Below are positions 1,302 through 11,826 of a DNA stretch of 64,000 bases, piece by piece. This stretch comes from Candidatus Latescibacterota bacterium (GTDB lineage: Bacteria > Latescibacterota > UBA2968 > UBA8231), in assembly GCA_965242865.1 (NCBI GenBank), contig CBDETK010000013.1:3520001-3584000 (forward strand). The letters are read 5' to 3'. The notes under the pieces are model-generated. The model did not search any database, was not told where the DNA came from, and saw nothing but the letters and a program-made list of their open reading frames with translations. Position numbers and translations under genes: made by a program. Within the stretch, counting starts at the first letter, position 1, and the number at the start of each line of letters is the position of its first letter.

Positions 1302-2597
1302 TTACGAGAGCCGCCCCTCTTTTTGCAGAATGTCCCCGGCAATCGCGTAGGTCGTGCCGTGCATGGCAATGACGACGAGGCCGATTCCGGCCGCGAGATA
1401 GCCCCCGAGATACAAGTTGGGTACGTCAATCGATTCGTAGTTGTGAGCGTGGGTCTGCACTTGCTCAACTTGGAATCGGTAGTTGTCGCGCATGGGCGTT
1501 AGGGTCAGCGGCGCAAAGCCCTGCACGATTGAATAATCGGCCACGCCGCCGATTTCCTTGATCACGTGATCGACCTCCACCACTTGCTCGCCGGCGGGCG
1601 TTTTCAGCCCGACCCGGCCGTCCTCGGCAATTTGGGTCACCTGGGTGTGATACGAGGTTTTGAGCCGGGGCGAGCGGCTTTCGAGGATTTCGGCGATGCG
1701 CTGGTAATAAGGCAACCCGTGGCGGCTGTCGTTGATTAGCTGCCAATGGACCGCTGGCCCTTGGCGCATGGCGTAATGCACTTGCTTGCCGGCGTCGTGC
1801 AATTCGGTCGCGGCCCAATCGCCCGAGCGCCCGCCGCCCACCACGAGCACCCGCTCGCCGGGGAAGTCTTCGGGCTTGTCGTAGTGCGCGGTGACCAAAG
1901 GACAAGTCTCGCCCTCAACCCCTAGTGACCGCAGGCGACCGCGCTGGCCGGTTGCCAAGACCAAGTACTTACAGGTGTAGCGTTGCTCAACGCCCGTTTG
2001 CACGTGCCGACTGGTGAGCTGAAAGCCCCGTTCGTGCGGTTCAATCCGCTCAACTTCCTCAAAGGTGCGAATGCGCTCGGCCACCCCAAAGCGCTCGGGC
2101 ACTCGGTGGTAGTACTCGATCAGGTCGGTCTTGAGGATTAGGGCGTTGACGTCTAAGGCGCGCCCGGCTTCTGCGGCGTACTGGGCCAGCGGATAAAAGG
2201 CAAACTCCATCCACTGGCCCGGCGACAAGGTCAACAGGTTTTGCGGTGCTCGGTTCCACAATCCGCCGACCGGCTCGCGGCTGATGAGCAGGGCGTCCAA
2301 TGGCTCGCCGCGCCGAAAGTCCATGGCGACTTGGTCTAGTTCCTCAAAGAGCTGGCGCGGGTGGTGCAGCGCGCGAAATAGGTCAACCGGCTTGATGCCG
2401 CTCTGCACGAGCTGGCGCATATCCAGCCCCAACAGCGAGCGGTCGAACTGCTGCAAGTACCGGGCGAGCGGCGCGTAGCGCGTGGCAAACATGCGGCTGT
2501 TGCGGAAAAAAGGATGCCAGCCGCCCAAAACTACGGCGAGGGGTAGGCCCGCTGGCCCCCCGCCGACGATGATGACGGTGTGGTGTTCTGTGCTCAT
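1302..2597 (-). CDS. FAD/NAD(P)-dependent oxidoreductase (FMO-like, OSGIN-like N-terminus)
   Basis: GGGPAG FAD motif, GGLW, LVLATG and a second Rossmann motif VVGGGRSG. Confidence 0.8.
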   Translation of the reverse strand: MSTEHHTVIIVGGGPAGLPLAVVLGGWHPFFRNSRMFATRYAPLARYLQQFDRSLLGLDMRQLVQSGIKPVDLFRALHHPRQLFEELDQVAMDFRRGEPLDALLISREPVGGLWNRAPQNLLTLSPGQWMEFAFYPLAQYAAEAGRALDVNALILKTDLIEYYHRVPERFGVAERIRTFEEVERIEPHERGFQLTSRHVQTGVEQRYTCKYLVLATGQRGRLRSLGVEGETCPLVTAHYDKPEDFPGERVLVVGGGRSGDWAATELHDAGKQVHYAMRQGPAVHWQLINDSRHGLPYYQRIAEILESRSPRLKTSYHTQVTQIAEDGRVGLKTPAGEQVVEVDHVIKEIGGVADYSIVQGFAPLTLTPMRDNYRFQVEQVQTHAHNYESIDVPNLYLGGYLAAGIGLVVIAMHGTTYAIAGDILQKEGRLS

Positions 2598-2934: not shown

Positions 2935-5849
2935 GTTTCAATCCGCTCCCCTCACCAAAGCAAGGGGAGACTCGTTGACTTTGGCCCGCGCCTCCGATTA
3001 TTTCACGTTTCAATCCGCTCCCCTCACCAAAGCAAGGGGAGACATCATGGAATTACTCGTGCTGGCTGCCCTGGTCATGTTTCAATCCGCTCCCCTCACC
3101 AAAGCAAGGGGAGACAGCCGCAGCTCTTTGGCCAGCTCGCCGGTCAAGCTGTTTCAATCCGCTCCCCTCACCAAAGCAAGGGGAGACCCCGAAGACGTGC
3201 GCGACGAGGCGGTCATCCGGGTGTTTCAATCCGCTCCCCTCACCAAAGCAAGGGGAGACGGGTTAGTGCAGGGGGAAGCGTCGCTGTACAGCGGCGTTTC
3301 AATCCGCTCCCCTCACCAAAGCAAGGGGAGACGGGCGCTGGACTCCCCATCATACTCGAGGTAGCACCAGTTTCAATCCGCTCCCCTCACCAAAGCAAGG
3401 GGAGACCACGGGCATGACGACGGGCATGACGACGCCCATGAGTTTCAATCCGCTCCCCTCACCAAAGCAAGGGGAGACCCAAGTCGCTCGCCCGCACCGC
3501 CCGGCTAGAACGTAGTTTCAATCCGCTCCCCTCACCAAAGCAAGGGGAGACGCGAGCCCTTCTGCGGGATGGCTTCGATATTGCTCGTTTCAATCCGCTC
3601 CCCTCACCAAAGCAAGGGGAGACTTGGGGCTGGGGCGGACGTCAACGCGAAGGACAGAGTTTCAATCCGCTCCCCTCACCAAAGCAAGGGGAGACAAGGG
3701 ACAAGCGATACCGTGGTGCTGCATCTATTGTTTCAATCCGCTCCCCTCACCAAAGCAAGGGGAGACTCGCTCAGGTAGGCTACGATTACGTCCTTGCGCT
3801 TGTTTCAATCCGCTCCCCTCACCAAAGCAAGGGGAGACCGCGCCGTAACAGCACACCCACGTAGTTGATGGAGTTTCAATCCGCTCCCCTCACCAAAGCA
3901 AGGGGAGACGCGAGTTCGGCGGTGACCGCTGGCGATACAGTTTGTTTCAATCCGCTCCCCTCACCAAAGCAAGGGGAGACAACAAGGGGAACACGCGATT
4001 TCACGTGAGCGTAAAGTTTCAATCCGCTCCCCTCACCAAAGCAAGGGGAGACCGCCTCGCTGACGGATGGGCGTTACGTCATTTACGTTTCAATCCGCTC
4101 CCCTCACCAAAGCAAGGGGAGACCCGTCACGTCTCTCGTAGCGGCCGCGAACTGCAAGGTTTCAATCCGCTCCCCTCACCAAAGCAAGGGGAGACTGGGA
4201 ACCCTGTACCTTAGGGGGGCGGCGGCTTGGTTTCAATCCGCTCCCCTCACCAAAGCAAGGGGAGACGCCAATCTGATAGGCACAATCTACCAGGATGCCC
4301 TGTTTCAATCCGCTCCCCTCACCAAAGCAAGGGGAGACGCGTCGCGTCCGCGTAGAGGATCGCCGCGTCGGTGTTTCAATCCGCTCCCCTCACCAAAGCA
4401 AGGGGAGACTGCCGCACGCTGACCGAGGGCTTCATTGTCCTATGGGTTTCAATCCGCTCCCCTCACCAAAGCAAGGGGAGACGCGCCGCGCCCGCGAACA
4501 ACGACATGGCCCAGCGAAGTTTCAATCCGCTCCCCTCACCAAAGCAAGGGGAGACTTGCCAATTTATCCTTGCTTGGGTTGGCATGATAGGTTTCAATCC
4601 GCTCCCCTCACCAAAGCAAGGGGAGACCCGCTGTGTGTGTGTGCCGCGCTTGGCCGCGGCACAGTTTCAATCCGCTCCCCTCACCAAAGCAAGGGGAGAC
4701 CCCCGGCTTGGGGTGCGGCAGGGGGCGGCGGCAAGGTTTCAATCCGCTCCCCTCACCAAAGCAAGGGGAGACACCGCGGCTTCGAGCGGCTTGTGTTCCT
4801 CGCAATCGTTTCAATCCGCTCCCCTCACCAAAGCAAGGGGAGACATATCAGGCCTCCTTTTGGTTGGGTGGGTGGACTGTTTCAATCCGCTCCCCTCACC
4901 AAAGCAAGGGGAGACGGGCCGTCAAGCCCCGCAACAAGCACATGGGCTTTGTTTCAATCCGCTCCCCTCACCAAAGCAAGGGGAGACGGGGCGCGCGGGG
5001 CGTTCCCACTTGGCTGGATCTAGTTTCAATCCGCTCCCCTCACCAAAGCAAGGGGAGACCCGATCATGCCAACCCAAGCAAGGTTATTTGGCTATGTTTC
5101 AATCCGCTCCCCTCACCAAAGCAAGGGGAGACACCGCACCTGCAAGGCTACCCGCTCATTGTCGATGTTTCAATCCGCTCCCCTCACCAAAGCAAGGGGA
5201 GACAGCCCGAGGGGTAATTGGTCTTGCCGCATTAGCTTGTTTCAATCCGCTCCCCTCACCAAAGCAAGGGGAGACCAAGCGACCGCGCCCACGTCGGCAG
5301 CCGATACCGTGTTTCAATCCGCTCCCCTCACCAAAGCAAGGGGAGACAACCCGAATGCGGTCTTGTCGGCTTGTATTTTTCTGTTTCAATCCGCTCCCCT
5401 CACCAAAGCAAGGGGAGACCGGGCGTTGAAGCTGGGAGCACGGTATAAGAAGATGTTTCAATCCGCTCCCCTCACCAAAGCAAGGGGAGACAGAGTGGAT
5501 TGAAACTTTTTCTTTTTTCTTTGCGTGTTTCAATCCGCTCCCCTCACCAAAGCAAGGGGAGACATTTGCGGCTGGGCGGTGAGTGCGAGGTGATCGAGTT
5601 TCAATCCGCTCCCCTCACCAAAGCAAGGGGAGACAAGGTGGAACGTTGGGCCGGTCTCGCCCCCGGCCCGTTTCAATCCGCTCCCCTCACCAAAGCAAGG
5701 GGAGACGATGCGTTGGTCAAAACGACCACGAGCGCGAACACGTTTCAATCCGCTCCCCTCACCAAAGCAAGGGGAGACAGGTAGAGGATTTTCCCTACTC
5801 GCTCTCGCGCTTGTTTCAATCCGCTCCCCTCACCAAAGCAAGGGGAGAC
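2935..5849 (-). CRISPR. Type I-C CRISPR array, 41 repeats of 37 bp and 40 spacers of 34-37 bp
   Basis: Repeat on + is GTTTCAATCCGCTCCCCTCACCAAAGCAAGGGGAGAC at about 72-bp period, counted by hand. On the minus strand it ends GGATTGAAAC and forms the stem CTCCCCT/AGGGGAG. Confidence 0.99.
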
Positions 5850-6029
5850 TCCGGTTGCTGTAACCAGCGGAACAACAAAAGGTTACATAAGTGGATGCGC
5901 GAACCTCCTTTCTTCCGCATCCTACGGCCGAAGCGAGAGCATACTCCTCGCTGTAAATTATTGTTAGCCATAAAGTTGCTAACTGCGCGAAAGTAAGCGC
6001 AAAACGCCGTTGCTTCGCATTCGCGCATG
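5850..6029 (-). promoter_or_regulatory. CRISPR leader
   Basis: Non-coding, relatively AT-rich segment between the cas2 stop and the first repeat; contains GCGCGAA twice. Confidence 0.8.
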
Positions 6030-6320
6030 CTATAAGACCAGTGGCTCATTCAAGTCCACGGGTTCGTTAAGTCCGTGATGCTCCGTCTTGCCTCTGGCGT
6101 CTTCGTCCAGATAATAAAACCTGAGAGAATCCTGCTTGGGATCAATTCCCTTTAGCAGGCGACTCCTAAGCACCGCCCATTCCGTTTTTCCCACCTGACA
6201 TTCAAAAAGCGATTTCTGCACTCGGACGCCGTAATCCTTACAGGCTCTTGCCACTTGGCGTAGCCGTCGTTGGCCAGCTCGGTCGGTAGTAGAAACGTCG
6301 TACGCGATCAGGATAAACAT
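6030..6320 (-). CDS. cas2: CRISPR-associated endonuclease Cas2
   Basis: MFILIAYDVST...RRLRQVARACKDYGVRVQKSLFEC...DSLRFYYL. The start at 6320 overlaps the cas1 stop. Confidence 0.97.
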   Translation of the reverse strand: MFILIAYDVSTTDRAGQRRLRQVARACKDYGVRVQKSLFECQVGKTEWAVLRSRLLKGIDPKQDSLRFYYLDEDARGKTEHHGLNEPVDLNEPLVL

Positions 6321-7375
6321 TATTTTGGAATGAAGGGGATATAGTCCGGGACATCGCCGCGGAGCTTGCGGGCCAACAATTTGGCCTGAATACTGAATAC
6401 TTGCCCCAAGCGGACATTCTGCTTGAATAGGGCGTGTTTTACTTCTGTTTGCTTGCGCCGTTGCCAAGCTTGGATGACCTCTCGCCTGCCTTGGTCGGTA
6501 AATTCTACGGCCCCGCCCTCTCGCTCGCGAAAGTGCTTGGCCTCGATCTGCCGTCGATTGATCAGGGTCAATGCCAGCCGCTCTGCCAAACAGGGTCGAA
6601 ACTCTTCCATGAGGTCTAAGGCGCAAGCCGGCCTTCCCGCTCGCGTTACATGAAGCCAGCCGACATAAGCGTCCAACCCAGCGGTCGTTAGCGCGGCTAA
6701 GCAATCGTGGCGCACCAAGGCATAAATAAAGGAAAGCAGGCAGTTTATCCGATCCCGGGGCGGACGCCGCGTCCGGGTTAAAAACCTGAAGTCTTCTCGC
6801 TGTTGTTTGAGCATACATTGGAACACCGAGAAGTAGGTCTTGGCCCCTAGCCCCTCTAAGCCCCTGATTGGGTCGAGTGCTTCCCTAAGCCCGCAGTCTG
6901 GGGCAATAGGTGGGGCAGCGCCGAGTTGGCGGATTAGCCGGGCCAGTTCATGCGCTGCATCTGCCAAGGCCGTGCGGTCGGCATCGCCATCGGCTTCCCG
7001 TCCGGCTCGCAAGAGATTGGAGCGTGCGTTTTGCAATTTTCCAGCGACGAATTGCCGGGCAATGCGCGCGGCCTCTTGCGGGCTGTCTGCTGCGGCATAC
7101 TGCGCCCGGCGCAGCAAGTAGCGGGTATCTCCGCTTCCCAAGACTTGTGCCAGCAAGTAGCCGTTCTCCGTGTGGTAATGAACCGCCACTTGATGATCCC
7201 AGCACAAGGCCATGGCCGGGGGCGTAACCACGACCCGCCCAAACGCACAAATGCTTTCCAAATGGTGAATCGGCACGGTCAGGCGATTTTGCTTTTCAAT
7301 CTCGACTCGCAACGTCAAGTGGTCCCTGTGTACCACAGTACCCGGCGTCGTCAAATAAAGAGTGTTTTGTTTCAA
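6320..7375 (-). CDS. cas1: Type I-C Cas1 integrase (probable TTG start at 7375; alternative in-frame starts at 7393 and 7411)
   Basis: NTLYLTT, RGLEG..A..YF, RTRRPPRDRINCLLSFIY, ALDLMEEFRP..AERL. Confidence 0.97.
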   Translation of the reverse strand: MKQNTLYLTTPGTVVHRDHLTLRVEIEKQNRLTVPIHHLESICAFGRVVVTPPAMALCWDHQVAVHYHTENGYLLAQVLGSGDTRYLLRRAQYAAADSPQEAARIARQFVAGKLQNARSNLLRAGREADGDADRTALADAAHELARLIRQLGAAPPIAPDCGLREALDPIRGLEGLGAKTYFSVFQCMLKQQREDFRFLTRTRRPPRDRINCLLSFIYALVRHDCLAALTTAGLDAYVGWLHVTRAGRPACALDLMEEFRPCLAERLALTLINRRQIEAKHFREREGGAVEFTDQGRREVIQAWQRRKQTEVKHALFKQNVRLGQVFSIQAKLLARKLRGDVPDYIPFIPK

Positions 7376-7460
7376 TCCGTCTCCCTGTTTCAATCCGTTT
7401 CCCTCACCCAAGCAAGAGGAGACGCTGATTGCCGTAACCAGCGGAATGACAAAATCCTTA
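7369..7460 (-). repeat. Leader-like fragment, degenerate repeat (7387-7423) and 18-nt half repeat (7369-7386) overlapping the cas1 start
   Basis: 7387-7423 matches the consensus at 33/37. 7424-7460 shares TTGCyGTAACCAGCGGAA..ACAAAA with the real leader starting at 5850. Confidence 0.9.
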
Positions 7461-7480
7461 AATAGGAGATCCAGACGGGT

Positions 7481-8137
7481 CTAGTCGGTAGTATCGAACA
7501 CTGCCCGATAGGCCCGCGCCAGCGTGGGCGGAACACTGGTGATTTCGGGAAGGCAATGGTCGAAAAGCGAGCACTCGGAACATTGGGGTTTGTGAACAGC
7601 TTGTGGAACCGCGTCCTCCTCAATTATCCGGTGCATGGCTGCGATGGCCTGCTCGGTGAGGCGGCGCAAATCCTCGGTAAATTCCACCTCGCGGCGGCGC
7701 TTGCTCTTGGCGTGGAAGATGGCCCCGCGGGGAATGTCCCGTCCAAACATCTCTTCCAAACACAGGGCTTGCGCGCAAAGCTGGGCGTCGTCGTTGTCAA
7801 ACTTGCGGCGTTTGCCCTTTTTGAACTCGACCGGAACCAACGAACCATCGGGATGGCGTTCAACAATGTCGCACTTGCCGCTGAGCCGCAGCCGATCCGA
7901 CCAGACGGGCAGGGCGCGCAACAGCGTCACGCCCTTGACGGTTTCGTAGCCGGAAACGTCGGCCTGATCATGAAGTTGGCTCCCGACCACCGTATGCACG
8001 TTGTCGCTAAAGGTTCCCTCAACGTGAATTAAGGCCGCCCGGCGAGGGCAATAGAGATATTGATTGATAGAGGAGAGCGGGATGGTCCGCCCCCCACTAT
8101 CGAATGATTGAATCGGCAGGGTGCCCGTTTCATTCAT
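7481..8137 (-). CDS. cas4: CRISPR-associated exonuclease Cas4
   Basis: QYLYCPRR, G.CDIVE, PVEFKKG, QLCAQALCLEEM, C-terminal C..CSL...C Fe-S cysteines. Confidence 0.96.
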   Translation of the reverse strand: MNETGTLPIQSFDSGGRTIPLSSINQYLYCPRRAALIHVEGTFSDNVHTVVGSQLHDQADVSGYETVKGVTLLRALPVWSDRLRLSGKCDIVERHPDGSLVPVEFKKGKRRKFDNDDAQLCAQALCLEEMFGRDIPRGAIFHAKSKRRREVEFTEDLRRLTEQAIAAMHRIIEEDAVPQAVHKPQCSECSLFDHCLPEITSVPPTLARAYRAVFDTTD

Positions 8138-8173
8138 GTTTCAATCCGCCCCCGTACTCGGAGCCAAGGCGCC
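8138..8173 (-). repeat. Degenerate CRISPR repeat filling the whole cas7-cas4 intergenic gap
   Basis: GTTTCAATCCGCCCCCG matches the repeat at 15/17 nt. On the minus strand GGATTGAAAC abuts the cas4 ATG; the 36-bp gap is about one repeat length. Confidence 0.7.
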
Positions 8174-9130
8174 TCAGGCATGACGCTTGTGCAAGCGCAC
8201 ACCGGCCGGTAGGTCCGTGCTATCCCACCCACAGCTAACCTCGTAATCGGCAAAAGATTTGGGAAATTCCACGCTATCCTTCAACGTCACCTCAATGCCC
8301 TCGAAGAGCTTGTGAGCATGGGCGCAACCGAGGCGGGCTTCTCGCCTGTTCTGCGCGGCGTTGTTCTCGTGCTGGGTGCCGACATGCTCAAAGTCGTAGA
8401 TGCCGCGCACCGCCATTTCGCCGCGGGCGGCGGAGCGGTCATGCTCGAACATCTGGTTGAGTGCGTCAAAGAGAATGTCGAGATCGGCGTTGGTGAAACC
8501 CGTGCGCTCGGCAAAGGCCGGAGATACGTAAGCCTTGGCGGCATAGAGGGCGTAGGGCACAATGTGCTTGTTGCCCATGGTGCGTTCCTTCTCGGCGTCC
8601 TCTTCTTTGGTCACGGCCATGCGAGTAATGGAAATCTCCATCGGGGTGATAGGGTGGTACGACTGGCCGAAGGTAAATTGCACCGGGCCGCGCACTTGGC
8701 CCCAAGCAGAGCCTCTCATAATATCGTTACCGACAGCAAGCACACCACCAAAGGCACGGACATCAAAGAACTCGCGACACAGCCATTTCATGGCGGCTTC
8801 CTGTTGTTCGGATTTGGACGCACCCGAAGCCAAGCCCTCACCGCTTTTCTTAATGCCGTTGCTGATCTCATTGCTGAGCACGGCACCCTGCTTGATCAGC
8901 AGATTATAGCCGTTGGCCCCATTCTCCCCAATCCGCTCCGGGGAGAACATTTCGACGAAGTTCCGCACCTTGCGCTTAAGGCACACATCGGAGACGATGC
9001 CGCGGTTGGTATTGGGGTCAAGGCGCGGCATGTTGCCAGCATCGGGATCGCCGTTGGGATTGCCATTCGTGACATCGAAGATCAGCAACACATCGTGCCG
9101 ATTGGTGAGGATGTCGTTGAGTTTGTTCAT
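8174..9130 (-). CDS. cas7: Type I-C Cas7 (Csd2)
   Basis: NGNPNGDPDAGNMPR, SDVCLKRKVR, FFDVRAFG, GQVRGPVQF, TMGNKH.VPYALY, HDRSAARG. Confidence 0.97.
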   Translation of the reverse strand: MNKLNDILTNRHDVLLIFDVTNGNPNGDPDAGNMPRLDPNTNRGIVSDVCLKRKVRNFVEMFSPERIGENGANGYNLLIKQGAVLSNEISNGIKKSGEGLASGASKSEQQEAAMKWLCREFFDVRAFGGVLAVGNDIMRGSAWGQVRGPVQFTFGQSYHPITPMEISITRMAVTKEEDAEKERTMGNKHIVPYALYAAKAYVSPAFAERTGFTNADLDILFDALNQMFEHDRSAARGEMAVRGIYDFEHVGTQHENNAAQNRREARLGCAHAHKLFEGIEVTLKDSVEFPKSFADYEVSCGWDSTDLPAGVRLHKRHA

Positions 9131-9151
9131 CGTTCAATCTCCTGTCAGGGG

Positions 9152-9568
9152 TTATTGGTTATCGGTTTCTTTGTTTTGCTTGGCCGCCTCGCGGGCGACG
9201 CGAGCTTCGGCTTTTTGCTGGTAAAAGCCGATGGCGAACCGCCCCTGCGCGTGCAGGTCCAGCGTGCGGGGAAATTGGTTGACCCGGGTCAACACATCTT
9301 GAATGGCTTCGTCGAGGAAACGCTCATGACCTTTATACTTGTCGGACTTGCCGATTTTGCTGAGGTGATGGCGGTTGAGTTTGAGAAGAACGGGAAACAC
9401 CGAGGCCGGCGAGGCCATGGCAGTGCCAAAGTACCGTTCGACAACGCCGGCACCTTCAAGCGAATAGTCATGCGCCTTGGCCTGAGTTTCGGCGAGGACA
9501 GCGAGCAATCGACCGCATTGATAGGCCGCATCGCCCGTATCGGCGGTTTGTCTTTCTGCAATCTCCAT
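9152..9568 (-). CDS. cas11c: Probable Cas11c small subunit translated from an internal start in cas8c
   Basis: In-frame ATG at 9568 preceded by AAAGGA (RNRKDDI-MEIAE...), just before AYQCGRLLAVL. Internal Cas11 translation is established for type I-C. Confidence 0.7.
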   Translation of the reverse strand: MEIAERQTADTGDAAYQCGRLLAVLAETQAKAHDYSLEGAGVVERYFGTAMASPASVFPVLLKLNRHHLSKIGKSDKYKGHERFLDEAIQDVLTRVNQFPRTLDLHAQGRFAIGFYQQKAEARVAREAAKQNKETDNQ

Positions 9569-11022: not shown

Positions 11023-11826
11023 TCAGGCCCCTTTAGGTTCGAGGATTTCAACTTCATCGGGATGGCAAGCCAAGGTGGAATTCTCGATCTTGGCGCGGAA
11101 GAAACAGGCCCTCGGTTTCGCCAATTCGCCGACAAAACGCGGGGTATTCTTTTTTGGTTTGGGTCCTAGTTCGTCCGGGCGTTTCCAGCGAAAGCCCTCG
11201 GCTCGGGCGTTGGGTGAAAAAACATCGTAGAGCATCCAACCCAAGTCCTCCTCGGGCTGCCGCCAACTGGTACCAAGTTCGGCTGTTCGCTCTTCCATGG
11301 CAGTTTGGGGATCATCCACCCACTCGAAGTCCGCCGCAAATTCACGCATACCCAAGGCTGGCCGATGGAAGCACTTGCCCTGTTGGGCGCGGCGCTTGAA
11401 TTCAGCGAAATACTTCATCGGCGGGTCAGTCTTGCGATCCGCCAACGGCGTGGTACGCAACTCGGCACTGATGATGTACTCCACTTCCTGCAAAGCCAAC
11501 ATGTTGCGCTGGGTACCGTCGGGTGCGCCACCGCCTGCCTCAATAGGTTTGACCTTCTCCGGCTGAGCCATCCATTGACTGACGTTACGTAGGCTGATGA
11601 CCGACTGCACTTCATTGCGCCGAATGGAGGCCCAGCGGCCTCGCCGCACCACCCGGATGGCGGCGACGCGATAGCAGACTTGGGGCTCCCAAAAGACAGC
11701 TTCCAAGATGCCTCGGGCCGCAGAAGGCGTCATAATTGGATAACTGACGCGCTCCACTTTCATTTCAGGGCGGGTGAAACAGGCCCAGTCGCCCCAGACT
11801 CTCAGATGTACGTAGTTACCTTTCAT
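11023..11826 (-). CDS. cas5: Type I-C Cas5 (Cas5d, crRNA-processing)
   Basis: WGDWACFTRPEMKVERVSYPIMTPSAARGILEA, LGMREF. Confidence 0.96.
   Translation of the reverse strand: MKGNYVHLRVWGDWACFTRPEMKVERVSYPIMTPSAARGILEAVFWEPQVCYRVAAIRVVRRGRWASIRRNEVQSVISLRNVSQWMAQPEKVKPIEAGGGAPDGTQRNMLALQEVEYIISAELRTTPLADRKTDPPMKYFAEFKRRAQQGKCFHRPALGMREFAADFEWVDDPQTAMEERTAELGTSWRQPEEDLGWMLYDVFSPNARAEGFRWKRPDELGPKPKKNTPRFVGELAKPRACFFRAKIENSTLACHPDEVEILEPKGA

Follow-up and report, generated by a model that had tools for sequence, protein, structure and literature searches.

Repeat-derived units abut the start codons of adaptation genes in a type I-C cas operon of Candidatus Latescibacterota

Solitary repeat units (SRUs), repeat-like sequences that lie outside a CRISPR array, have been described inside type I-C cas operons, where they are cut by Cas5c just 5' of the 11-nt handle in Cascade-expressing cells (10.1101/2024.12.27.630466); here and below, what we say of published systems refers to the accessible parts of the cited sources. 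The CRISIS units of that report, which belong to CRISPR RNA (crRNA)-like guides called crlRNAs, lie between cas3 (or cargo genes) and cas5c; a non-coding spacer-like stretch that matches a promoter with a TTC or TTA protospacer adjacent motif follows them, and they act in trans. Likewise, the CreR/CreA mini-CRISPRs and the repeat-like elements surveyed by Shmakov et al. (PMC10120712; 10.1101/2023.03.10.532045) work as guides and take the form of SRUs or mini-arrays located in long gaps close to cas3, cas8 or cas6, and the survey reports repeat-like sequence in 34% of 1206 I-C loci without placing it (PMC10120712, Table 1). We analysed a 64,000-nt stretch of a Candidatus Latescibacterota genome (GCA_965242865.1, contig CBDETK010000013.1, positions 3,520,001 to 3,584,000; hereafter the window). 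On the minus strand of the window, the entire gap between cas7 and cas4 (8138-8173) is a degenerate SRU of the locus's own type I-C repeat, and this unit ends exactly at the cas4 start codon. The unit, its homology to the repeat, its conservation in related loci and its placement can be read directly from the sequences.

Like the CRISIS units (10.1101/2024.12.27.630466), the SRU at the cas4 start is a single sense-strand unit in a I-C operon with a possible hairpin and a conserved 11-nt handle, but its handle runs straight into the start codon of an adaptation gene and is followed by coding sequence. With the CreR/CreA mini-CRISPRs and the surveyed repeat-like elements it shares derivation from a repeat, a cas-intergenic position and conservation among relatives. 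Solitary repeat mimics that engage Cas proteins are also known from phages (Racr, PMC10651486) and from viral mini-arrays (PMC6858448). These sit on mobile elements as decoys against the host, whereas the SRU at the cas4 start is located in the host's chromosomal cas operon and is borne by neither a phage nor a plasmid. In the accessible SRU-survey, CRISIS, CreR and Cas5c literature we found no description of repeat copies fused to adaptation-gene start codons; in the survey of Shmakov et al. (PMC10120712), as far as it was accessible, cas4 is absent from the main text, type I-C appears only in the table, and two supplements gave no match to CAS-I-C or cas4. The element belongs to a known class, the SRU, in a placement, and with a likely action in cis on mRNA, that we have not found described.

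The array repeat, GTCTCCCCTTGCTTTGGTGAGGGGAGCGGATTGAAAC (37 nt, 41 identical copies), forms a 10-bp stem closed by a tetraloop, with an 11-nt tail, CGGATTGAAAC, at its 3' end; the cas4-start SRU carries the identical tail and has, in this respect, the 3' overhang and the conserved bases next to the cut site that are expected of a Cas5c substrate. Reading the minus strand, the cas7 stop codon TGA (8176-8174) is followed by 36 nt (8173-8138) and then directly by the cas4 ATG (8137-8135). An initial annotation of this DNA had described the gap as one degenerate repeat ending at the cas4 ATG with its final 12 nt identical to the repeat end, and both statements agree with our analysis: the last 12 nt are the repeat end, and the ATG begins right after the final handle base. 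Counted by hand, an ungapped right-justified comparison of the 36-nt gap with the repeat gives 23 identities in 36 positions, and 16 of the last 17 nt match. The motif GCGGATTGAAAC, searched with at most one mismatch, has 46 matches in the window against 0.56 expected; outside the array repeats these are found at 8138 (exact), at 7387 and 7369 (one mismatch each), at 2038 and at 5495, the last on the plus strand inside an array spacer. We also searched the 58,121 non-array bases of the window on both strands, without filters, with a covariance model built from 15 related 37-nt repeats (R1). The best matches, with E-values that are rough, were 7387-7423(-) at E 4.5e-7 and 8138-8184(-) at E 0.0087, and the next one had E 0.048. 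The cas4-start SRU is a single unit with no repeat-spacer-repeat architecture. In a scan of 5800-9300, the coding strand had no promoter-like or terminator-like site from cas7 to cas1, and overall such sites were no more frequent than in shuffled sequence.

The second R1 site lies in the cas4-cas1 gap, where a copy of the leader end, a near-full solitary repeat and an 18-nt partial repeat follow one another, the two repeats without a spacer between them. The partial repeat at 7369-7386 brings a Shine-Dalgarno-like GGGAG 5 nt upstream of a TTG at 7375-7373, inside the second handle. The Cas1c profile match begins at residue 15 of the open reading frame (ORF), which corresponds to profile position 3, and homologues start with M-x-x-Q-N-T-L-Y; based on the profile and these N termini, we placed the cas1 start at this TTG, which is probably the genuine start codon. 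The proposal that cas4 and cas1 both begin at a repeat handle thus holds. The accompanying picture of cas4 as a giant spacer is a looser one: repeats stand at both ends, but the downstream repeat lies 57 nt past the cas4 stop together with the leader copy, and related loci with SRUs at single junctions bracket no gene. The leader copy at 7424-7454 indicates that DNA exchange with the leader-repeat junction of the array has happened. Neither the cas4 nor the cas1 site has two pseudo-repeats around a spacer-sized insert, as a neo-CRISPR would, and the fold at the cas1 site does not differ significantly from shuffles (z -1.20).

Related loci came from 61 related genomes searched for Cas4, from a scan that took one genome per species, and from a metagenome scan. 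We defined close relatives as the 15 distinct loci, the window included, with Cas4 at least 70% identical (70-85%), L134 and L135 being the same and counted once, and inspected the 75 nt before each gene start. Wherever an array was in view in these loci, its repeat was of the CTCCCC...GGGGAGCGGATTGAAAC type, except in L045. The cas4 start carries an SRU in five of the eight loci with a I-C cas7 upstream (window, L039, L040, L042 and L133); in L054 cas7 and cas4 overlap, and L044 and L053 have gaps of about 460-530 nt. This is repeat-like sequence in a cas-locus intergenic region, outside the array, conserved in position. Of the last 12 nt of the window's unit, 11-12 are retained in the four other cas4-start SRUs, whereas four-fold degenerate sites of cas1 in these locus pairs are only 0.46-0.59 identical. 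Because homologous loci keep the motif, the initial annotation, which had suggested a comparative search for it at cas4 starts, does not fall on its absence from homologues. At the cas1 start, SRUs are present in 9 of 15 loci (window, L039, L040, L041, L042, L043, L044, L052 and L132) and missing from L045, L053, L054, L063, L133 and L134. The cas2 start has one in 7 of 14 (L039, L040, L043, L045, L054, L063 and L133), the others showing a TAATG overlap (six loci) or a plain gap (one), and a single locus, L054, has one at the cas5 start. Adaptation genes at junctions without an SRU mostly overlap (ATGA or TAATG).

Applied without filters to 42,780 nt from 10 loci, R1 returned 11 matches at E<0.05, comprising one array repeat and 10 SRUs, and all 10 SRUs lie on the sense strand at cas4, cas1 or cas2 starts. 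A scan for GGATTGAAAC with at most one mismatch over the cas-gene regions of 94 loci (635,643 nt) gave 55 sense and 24 antisense matches, against 2 and 8 for reversed-motif controls, and 13 of the 55 sense matches contain a start codon or end exactly at one. Two geometries recur: either the ATG comes right after ...GAAAC, or the handle's own TTG is the start codon, as for cas1 in the window, L041 and L044 and for cas2 in L045, L054, L063 and L133, with a variant handle in L041 and L133. At the cas1 start of three loci there is a second, shorter handle copy of 18, 13 or 9 nt, and the one in L044 restores the TTG that is missing from the first copy.

Among metagenome loci with Cas4 of at most 67% identity we saw no start-abutting SRU. 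In L067, a more distant Clostridia metagenome-assembled genome (MAG), two partial repeats end at the cas1 ATG. Canonical I-C loci with 32-nt repeats, from the window's own genus, also contain repeat copies, which are followed by a separate Shine-Dalgarno sequence. A second model built for the 32-nt repeats (R2), run on five canonical relatives, found a strong cas1-cas2 SRU in L048/L020 (E 5.3e-8) and a marginal cas7-cas4 SRU in L051/L018 (E 0.054); degenerate cas7-cas4 units in L047, L049 and L050 were seen by eye and were not detected by R2.

For 22 SRUs compared with the cognate or nearest repeat, the fraction of differing positions is 0.39 in the first two bases, 0.33 in the 5' stem, 0.30 in the loop, 0.30 in the 3' stem and 0.10 in the handle, the last value being flattered by the fact that many of these SRUs were found through the handle motif. 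Five SRUs found by their stem-loop part alone have handles identical at 9-11 of 11 positions (allowing a 1-nt indel) and bodies that are 73-88% identical; these five are the only real SRUs from the stem-loop scan, whose 15-of-21 matches in GC-rich loci are noise. The published Cas5c specificity rests on the cut site and the 3' overhang and not on the loop or the 5' overhang (PMC8524198), and the SRU conservation pattern fits it. The stems of the L039 and L040 SRUs form 14 pairs (-25.4 and -23.0 kcal/mol). Compensatory changes are seen between them (C-G in L039, U-A in L040) and between the L042 SRU and its own array, where CUCCCC/GGGGAG has become CUCCUC/GAGGAG. In an alignment of the SRUs, 90.6% of the cells pair against 82.9% in shuffles and six pairs change on both sides, although the structure model guided the alignment and weak matches make up 5 of its 16 rows. 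The SRU of L044 resembles the repeat of its adaptation-module relatives and not that of its own adjacent array, so that it is inherited with the genes instead of being refreshed from the array.

To our knowledge, every repeat-derived regulator described so far is a guide that targets promoters. A repeat copy joined to a start codon would put the repeat to another use, as a protein-binding operator in an mRNA. Since the handle is fused to the start codon, a handle-binding protein would sit on the translation-initiation region, and the purine-rich 3' half of the repeat stem occupies the Shine-Dalgarno position. From this arrangement we tentatively propose that the element mimics crRNA in cis within the operon mRNA and so sets how the adaptation genes are translated or processed, a role we regard as possible rather than probable. 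The SRU would be transcribed within the cas3-cas5-cas8c-cas7-cas4-cas1-cas2 mRNA, and Cas5, alone or with Cas7 and Cas8c, may recognise the handle and the hairpin base as on pre-crRNA. Binding, and possibly cleavage, would then occlude or detach the ribosome-binding region, and the output of Cas4, Cas1 and Cas2 would thus be set apart from that of the effector genes, the direction of the effect being presumed. Adaptation output would in this way be tied to the Cas5 or Cascade pool that is not occupied by crRNA.

A more specific form of the crRNA-mimic proposal, which we consider doubtful, is autogenous post-transcriptional control, in which free Cas5 or Cascade would bind the handle-hairpin copies at the cas4, cas1 and cas2 starts and set the level of the acquisition machinery. 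If true, guide supply would feed back on acquisition capacity, as in ribosomal-protein operons, without guide-target pairing. Those operons are under autogenous translational control by mimicry of ribosomal RNA, and the likeness would consist in an RNA-binding protein acting on a target mimic at the translation start of its own operon, coupled to a free pool; the molecules are unrelated, and the logic in our locus is conjectural. Little is known about how cells keep the amounts of Cas1, Cas2 and Cas4 below that of the effector, and in the CreR work de-repression is reported to raise the uptake of self-spacers from about 0.08% to about 1.69% (10.1101/2023.03.10.532045). In the I-C dev operon of Myxococcus xanthus, DevTRS (Cas8c/Cas7/Cas5), a Cascade-like subcomplex, lowers its own transcript without a matching spacer (PMC8616872). 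How the subcomplex does this is not known, and the accessible part of that work mentions no repeat copy (PMC8616872).

Several observations weigh against the crRNA-mimic proposal, in addition to the two reservations on the conservation counts given above. The R1 score of the unit at 8138 derives almost wholly from the handle and not from the stem. The alternative hairpin CTCCG/CGGGG of the initial annotation can indeed form, with a 5-bp stem and a minimum free energy of -9.7 kcal/mol, but its stability is not above that of shuffles (z +0.15; 102 of 200 shuffles fold at least as well). Conservation of the handle could equally come from its use as a start codon or translation-initiation region, or from gene conversion by the array. 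Many close loci lack the SRUs and have overlapping genes or plain gaps in their place, which indicates that the element is dispensable. The Cas5 proteins themselves add to this. With catalytic columns inferred from Y46/W47 (PMC3973291) and from the Tyr50/Lys52/His121 numbering (PMC8524198), all 12 aligned Cas5 proteins of the 37-nt-repeat clade (the window and 11 others) have Phe-Trp-Glu and Ala-Glu, where the solved Cas5c and most canonical loci have His/Tyr-Trp-Lys (12 of 14 canonical) and Ala-His (12 of 14 canonical). The replaced positions are the two catalytic residues (Tyr/His and His) and a Lys that contacts the handle; in SmuCas5c this contact is made by Lys52, where the clade has Glu. 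In this alignment the window Cas5 has no Cas5c catalytic triad (Tyr/His, Lys, His). With the canonical catalytic residues missing, cleavage by the known Cas5 mechanism is doubtful. The suggestion in the initial annotation that Cas5d cleavage splits the mRNA therefore keeps its precedent, in that I-C operon SRUs are cut by Cas5c elsewhere (10.1101/2024.12.27.630466), and loses the expected active site. Handle binding by the Cas5 of this clade is plausible. The loci listed for the Phe-Trp-Glu/Ala-Glu entry are the window, L039-L044, L053, L054, L057, L062, L064, L068 and L076, and the Cas5 of a divergent second effector variant (L041) is also without the canonical catalytic residues. The Cas5 proteins of the 37-nt-repeat clade further share an extra GGGAPDGTQRN-like loop.

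A lineage without the canonical Cas5 active site and without cas6 in the locus raises the question of crRNA processing. The locus contains no cas6, and the Cas6 models TIGR01877 and PF01881 found nothing in the genome; PF10040 identified one Cas6 in the genome, at C13:4774868, beside a second, type III-like array. Cas6 was found in four of five relatives with this adaptation module and was not found, with two models tried, in G032, a relative with the same system whose genome is 93% complete. Judging from these gene contents, a dependence on foreign Cas6 for processing is neither shown nor excluded. The second array (C13:4796534-4800840) has an unstructured 37-nt repeat ending in GGGGATTGAAAC, with spacers of about 40 nt and a type III-like look, and its repeat ends in GGATTGAAAC, as the I-C repeat does. 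Solitary copies of the second array's repeat are located at C13:4770824 and C13:4772270, about 24 kb from that array and near the only Cas6.

Alternatively, the 3' half of the repeat may simply be a donor of ribosome-binding sites and start codons, with no Cas protein involved. GAGGGGAG plus CGGATTGAAAC would make a ready translation-initiation region, in which a purine-rich stretch that mimics a Shine-Dalgarno sequence is joined by an A/U-rich spacer and by a TTG that can serve as start codon, and duplicated repeat ends would have been kept for letting ribosomes start on cas4, cas1 and cas2. Start codons that come right after the handle or coincide with its TTG are what such a donor would leave, as are the second short handles at the cas1 start of three loci, one of which brings back the lost TTG in L044, and an SRU 5' half that decays freely. 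The absence of the Cas5 catalytic residues points the same way, and so does the distribution: only the lineage with GGGGAG in its repeat commonly has SRUs that abut start codons, and the canonical 32-nt-repeat loci supply a separate Shine-Dalgarno sequence after theirs. However, the Shine-Dalgarno-like 3' stem is less conserved than the handle (0.30 versus 0.10 mismatches), and the distance from the G-run to the ATG is 11-12 nt, which would make for poor ribosome-binding sites, whereas the AGGAG-like sites of cas3, cas8c and cas7 in this operon have a spacing of 7-8 nt. Moreover, L039, L040 and L042 retain complete stems, with compensatory changes, and SRU-free junctions manage with overlapping stop and start codons. 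We consider it rather unlikely that the units are donors of this kind and nothing else. It is less probable still that they are non-functional scars of array-operon recombination, of collapsed internal arrays or of mis-targeted Cas1-Cas2 integration, persisting by chance and, from time to time, through gene conversion by the array. The copy of the leader's last 31 nt at the window's cas1-proximal unit, the patchy distribution among close relatives, the shuffling of the adaptation module between two different effector modules and the view of many SRUs as spurious duplications in the accessible part of the survey (PMC10120712) would all be expected of scars. Yet the units are all on the sense strand, at offsets of 0 or -7 to start codons, at several independent junctions and in several lineages including the Clostridia MAG L067, and the handle is kept while four-fold sites are 0.46-0.59 identical. 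Compensatory stem changes, the lack of a repeat-spacer-repeat at the cas4-start SRU and the L044 unit, inherited with the genes rather than refreshed from the array, are likewise difficult to explain by scarring.

Two further accounts appear very improbable to us. The SRU plus the first ~35 nt of cas4 could be processed into a trans-acting, crRNA-like guide that directs Cascade to repress a partly complementary promoter, in the manner of crlRNA or CreR, given the demonstrated role of I-C SRUs between cas3 and cas5c (10.1101/2024.12.27.630466) and of CreR elements (10.1101/2023.03.10.532045) and the occurrence of cas3-cas5 SRUs in canonical I-C relatives. The 'spacer' of such a guide would be protein-coding sequence that differs between loci, as cas4 coding starts at the first base after the handle, and the element has no second repeat, no 3' hairpin and no promoter-like site of its own. 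Control at the DNA level, by Cas1-Cas2 (with or without Cas4) binding the repeat or leader-repeat copies before their own genes and blocking transcription, would account for SRUs that precede adaptation rather than effector genes and for the leader-repeat copy before cas1 in the window. However, conservation is highest at the leader-distal 3' end of the repeat, the other loci have no leader copy, and the strict sense orientation and start-codon abutment argue for the RNA level, so that this account too has very little probability in our view.

The SRUs of the window belong to a complete type I-C operon on the minus strand, cas3-cas5-cas8c-cas7-cas4-cas1-cas2, followed by the leader and the array (Table 1). 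The type I-C gene set was confirmed by NCBIfam matches above the curated cut-offs for Cas5c, Cas8c, Cas7/Csd2, Cas4 and Cas1c. Flanking ORFs of the operon encode a hydrolase, an oxidoreductase and a dehydratase.

Table 1. Positions of the operon, the array, the repeat-derived units and examples of units on phage-like contigs (C2, C4 and C11 are other contigs of the same genome; all other positions are in the window)
Feature	Position	Strand	Remarks
Degenerate SRU	8138..8173	-	fills the entire cas7-cas4 intergenic gap; 12-nt identity to repeat end, R1 match
11-nt handle CGGATTGAAAC	8138..8148	-	same as the 3' tail of the array repeat; adjoins the cas4 ATG
Copy of the leader's last 31 nt	7424..7454	-	25/31 match to leader 5880-5850 (hand count)
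Near-full solitary repeat	7387..7423	-	4 mismatches to array repeat; R1 E 4.5e-7
18-nt partial repeat AGGGAGACGGATTGAAAC	7369..7386	-	directly after the near-full repeat, no spacer between
cas3	14075-11823	-	
cas5 (Cas5c family)	11023..11826	-	NCBIfam TIGR01876, 116.5 bits (cut-off 85); expected handle binder
cas8c	11020-9152	-	NCBIfam score above curated cut-off
cas7/csd2	8174..9130	-	TIGR02589, 293.6 bits (cut-off 182.25)
cas4 (218 aa)	7481..8137	-	NCBIfam TIGR00372, 130.1 bits (cut-off 65)
cas1 (type I-C)	6320..7375	-	TIGR03640, 418.6 bits (cut-off 385); counted from the TTG in the second handle, the probable start
cas2	6030..6320	-	shares TAATG with the cas1 stop; junction has no SRU in the window
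Leader, 180 nt	5850-6029	-	
CRISPR array, 41 identical 37-nt repeats	2935..5849	-	
Phage-contig SRU (example)	C4:4320	+	
Phage-contig SRUs (examples)	C4:26295, 27026, 27102	-	
Phage-contig SRUs (examples)	C2:308, 2383, 2905	+	
Phage-contig SRUs (examples)	C11:5326, 15467, 16189	-	
Phage-borne mini-array	C4:12355-12545	+	locus L194

Within the operon, the cas8c-cas7 gap at 9131-9151 (-) reads ...ACAGGAGATTGAACG before the ATG and weakly resembles a shortened repeat 3' end; R1 gave no match in this gap. The bases before cas3 in L039, ...AGCGGATTGAGATT before the ATG, have a similarly weak likeness to a shortened repeat 3' end. Beyond the distal end of the array, by 270-900 nt, partial repeat-like stretches at 2638-2663 and 2025-2051 (+) may be decayed old repeats.

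Seven of the related loci (L041, L043, L045, L052, L063, L132 and L134) have a divergent I-C-like effector with the gene order cas5-cas8-cas7-cas3, whose proteins are about 25-52% identical to those of the window and have NCBIfam scores under the cut-offs. It is accompanied by the same cas4-cas1-cas2 module and repeat type, and the presence of one adaptation module on two different effectors indicates module shuffling. Long cas4-cas1 gaps of 500-1100 nt occur in L059, L061, L062, L076, L077, L088, L089, L119, L122, L125, L140, L142, L148 and L152, several of which end in low-complexity 'tcaaatc/tgaaat' runs right before cas1. In canonical I-C loci, SRUs are also found in the cas3-cas5 gap, 100-600 nt upstream of cas5, which is the published position of I-C crlRNAs; they are in the sense direction in L047, L048, L049, L085, L091, L099 and L114 and antisense in L056, L073, L084, L106 and L116.

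Three small contigs of the same genome, C2, C4 and C11 (loci L194-L197), look like phage, and C4 has PHROG matches to a tape measure protein, a major head protein, a tail completion protein, an endolysin, an HNH endonuclease and a methyltransferase. No I-C cas homologues were found on C2, C4 or C11. All three carry many SRUs of a variant repeat (...CGGGAGTGGATTGAAAC), just upstream of ORFs and in the sense direction to them, in a Racr-like manner. The mini-array on C4 consists of one variant repeat, then a spacer of 35 nt and a host I-C repeat copy, and after these a spacer of 34 nt and a truncated form of the host repeat; a terminator-like hairpin follows. Its host-repeat copies have T at the first handle position, compared with C in the host array. 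At 5495-5506 (+) of the window, one array spacer holds on the opposite strand GTGGATTGAAAC preceded by AGA, which corresponds to the T-type handle of the phage SRUs, and this spacer may have been acquired from an SRU-bearing phage region. Host-array spacers 36-38, with numbering from the leader end, have matches of 26-31 nt in contigs C9, C12 and C6, and these contigs are likely further mobile elements of the same assembly.

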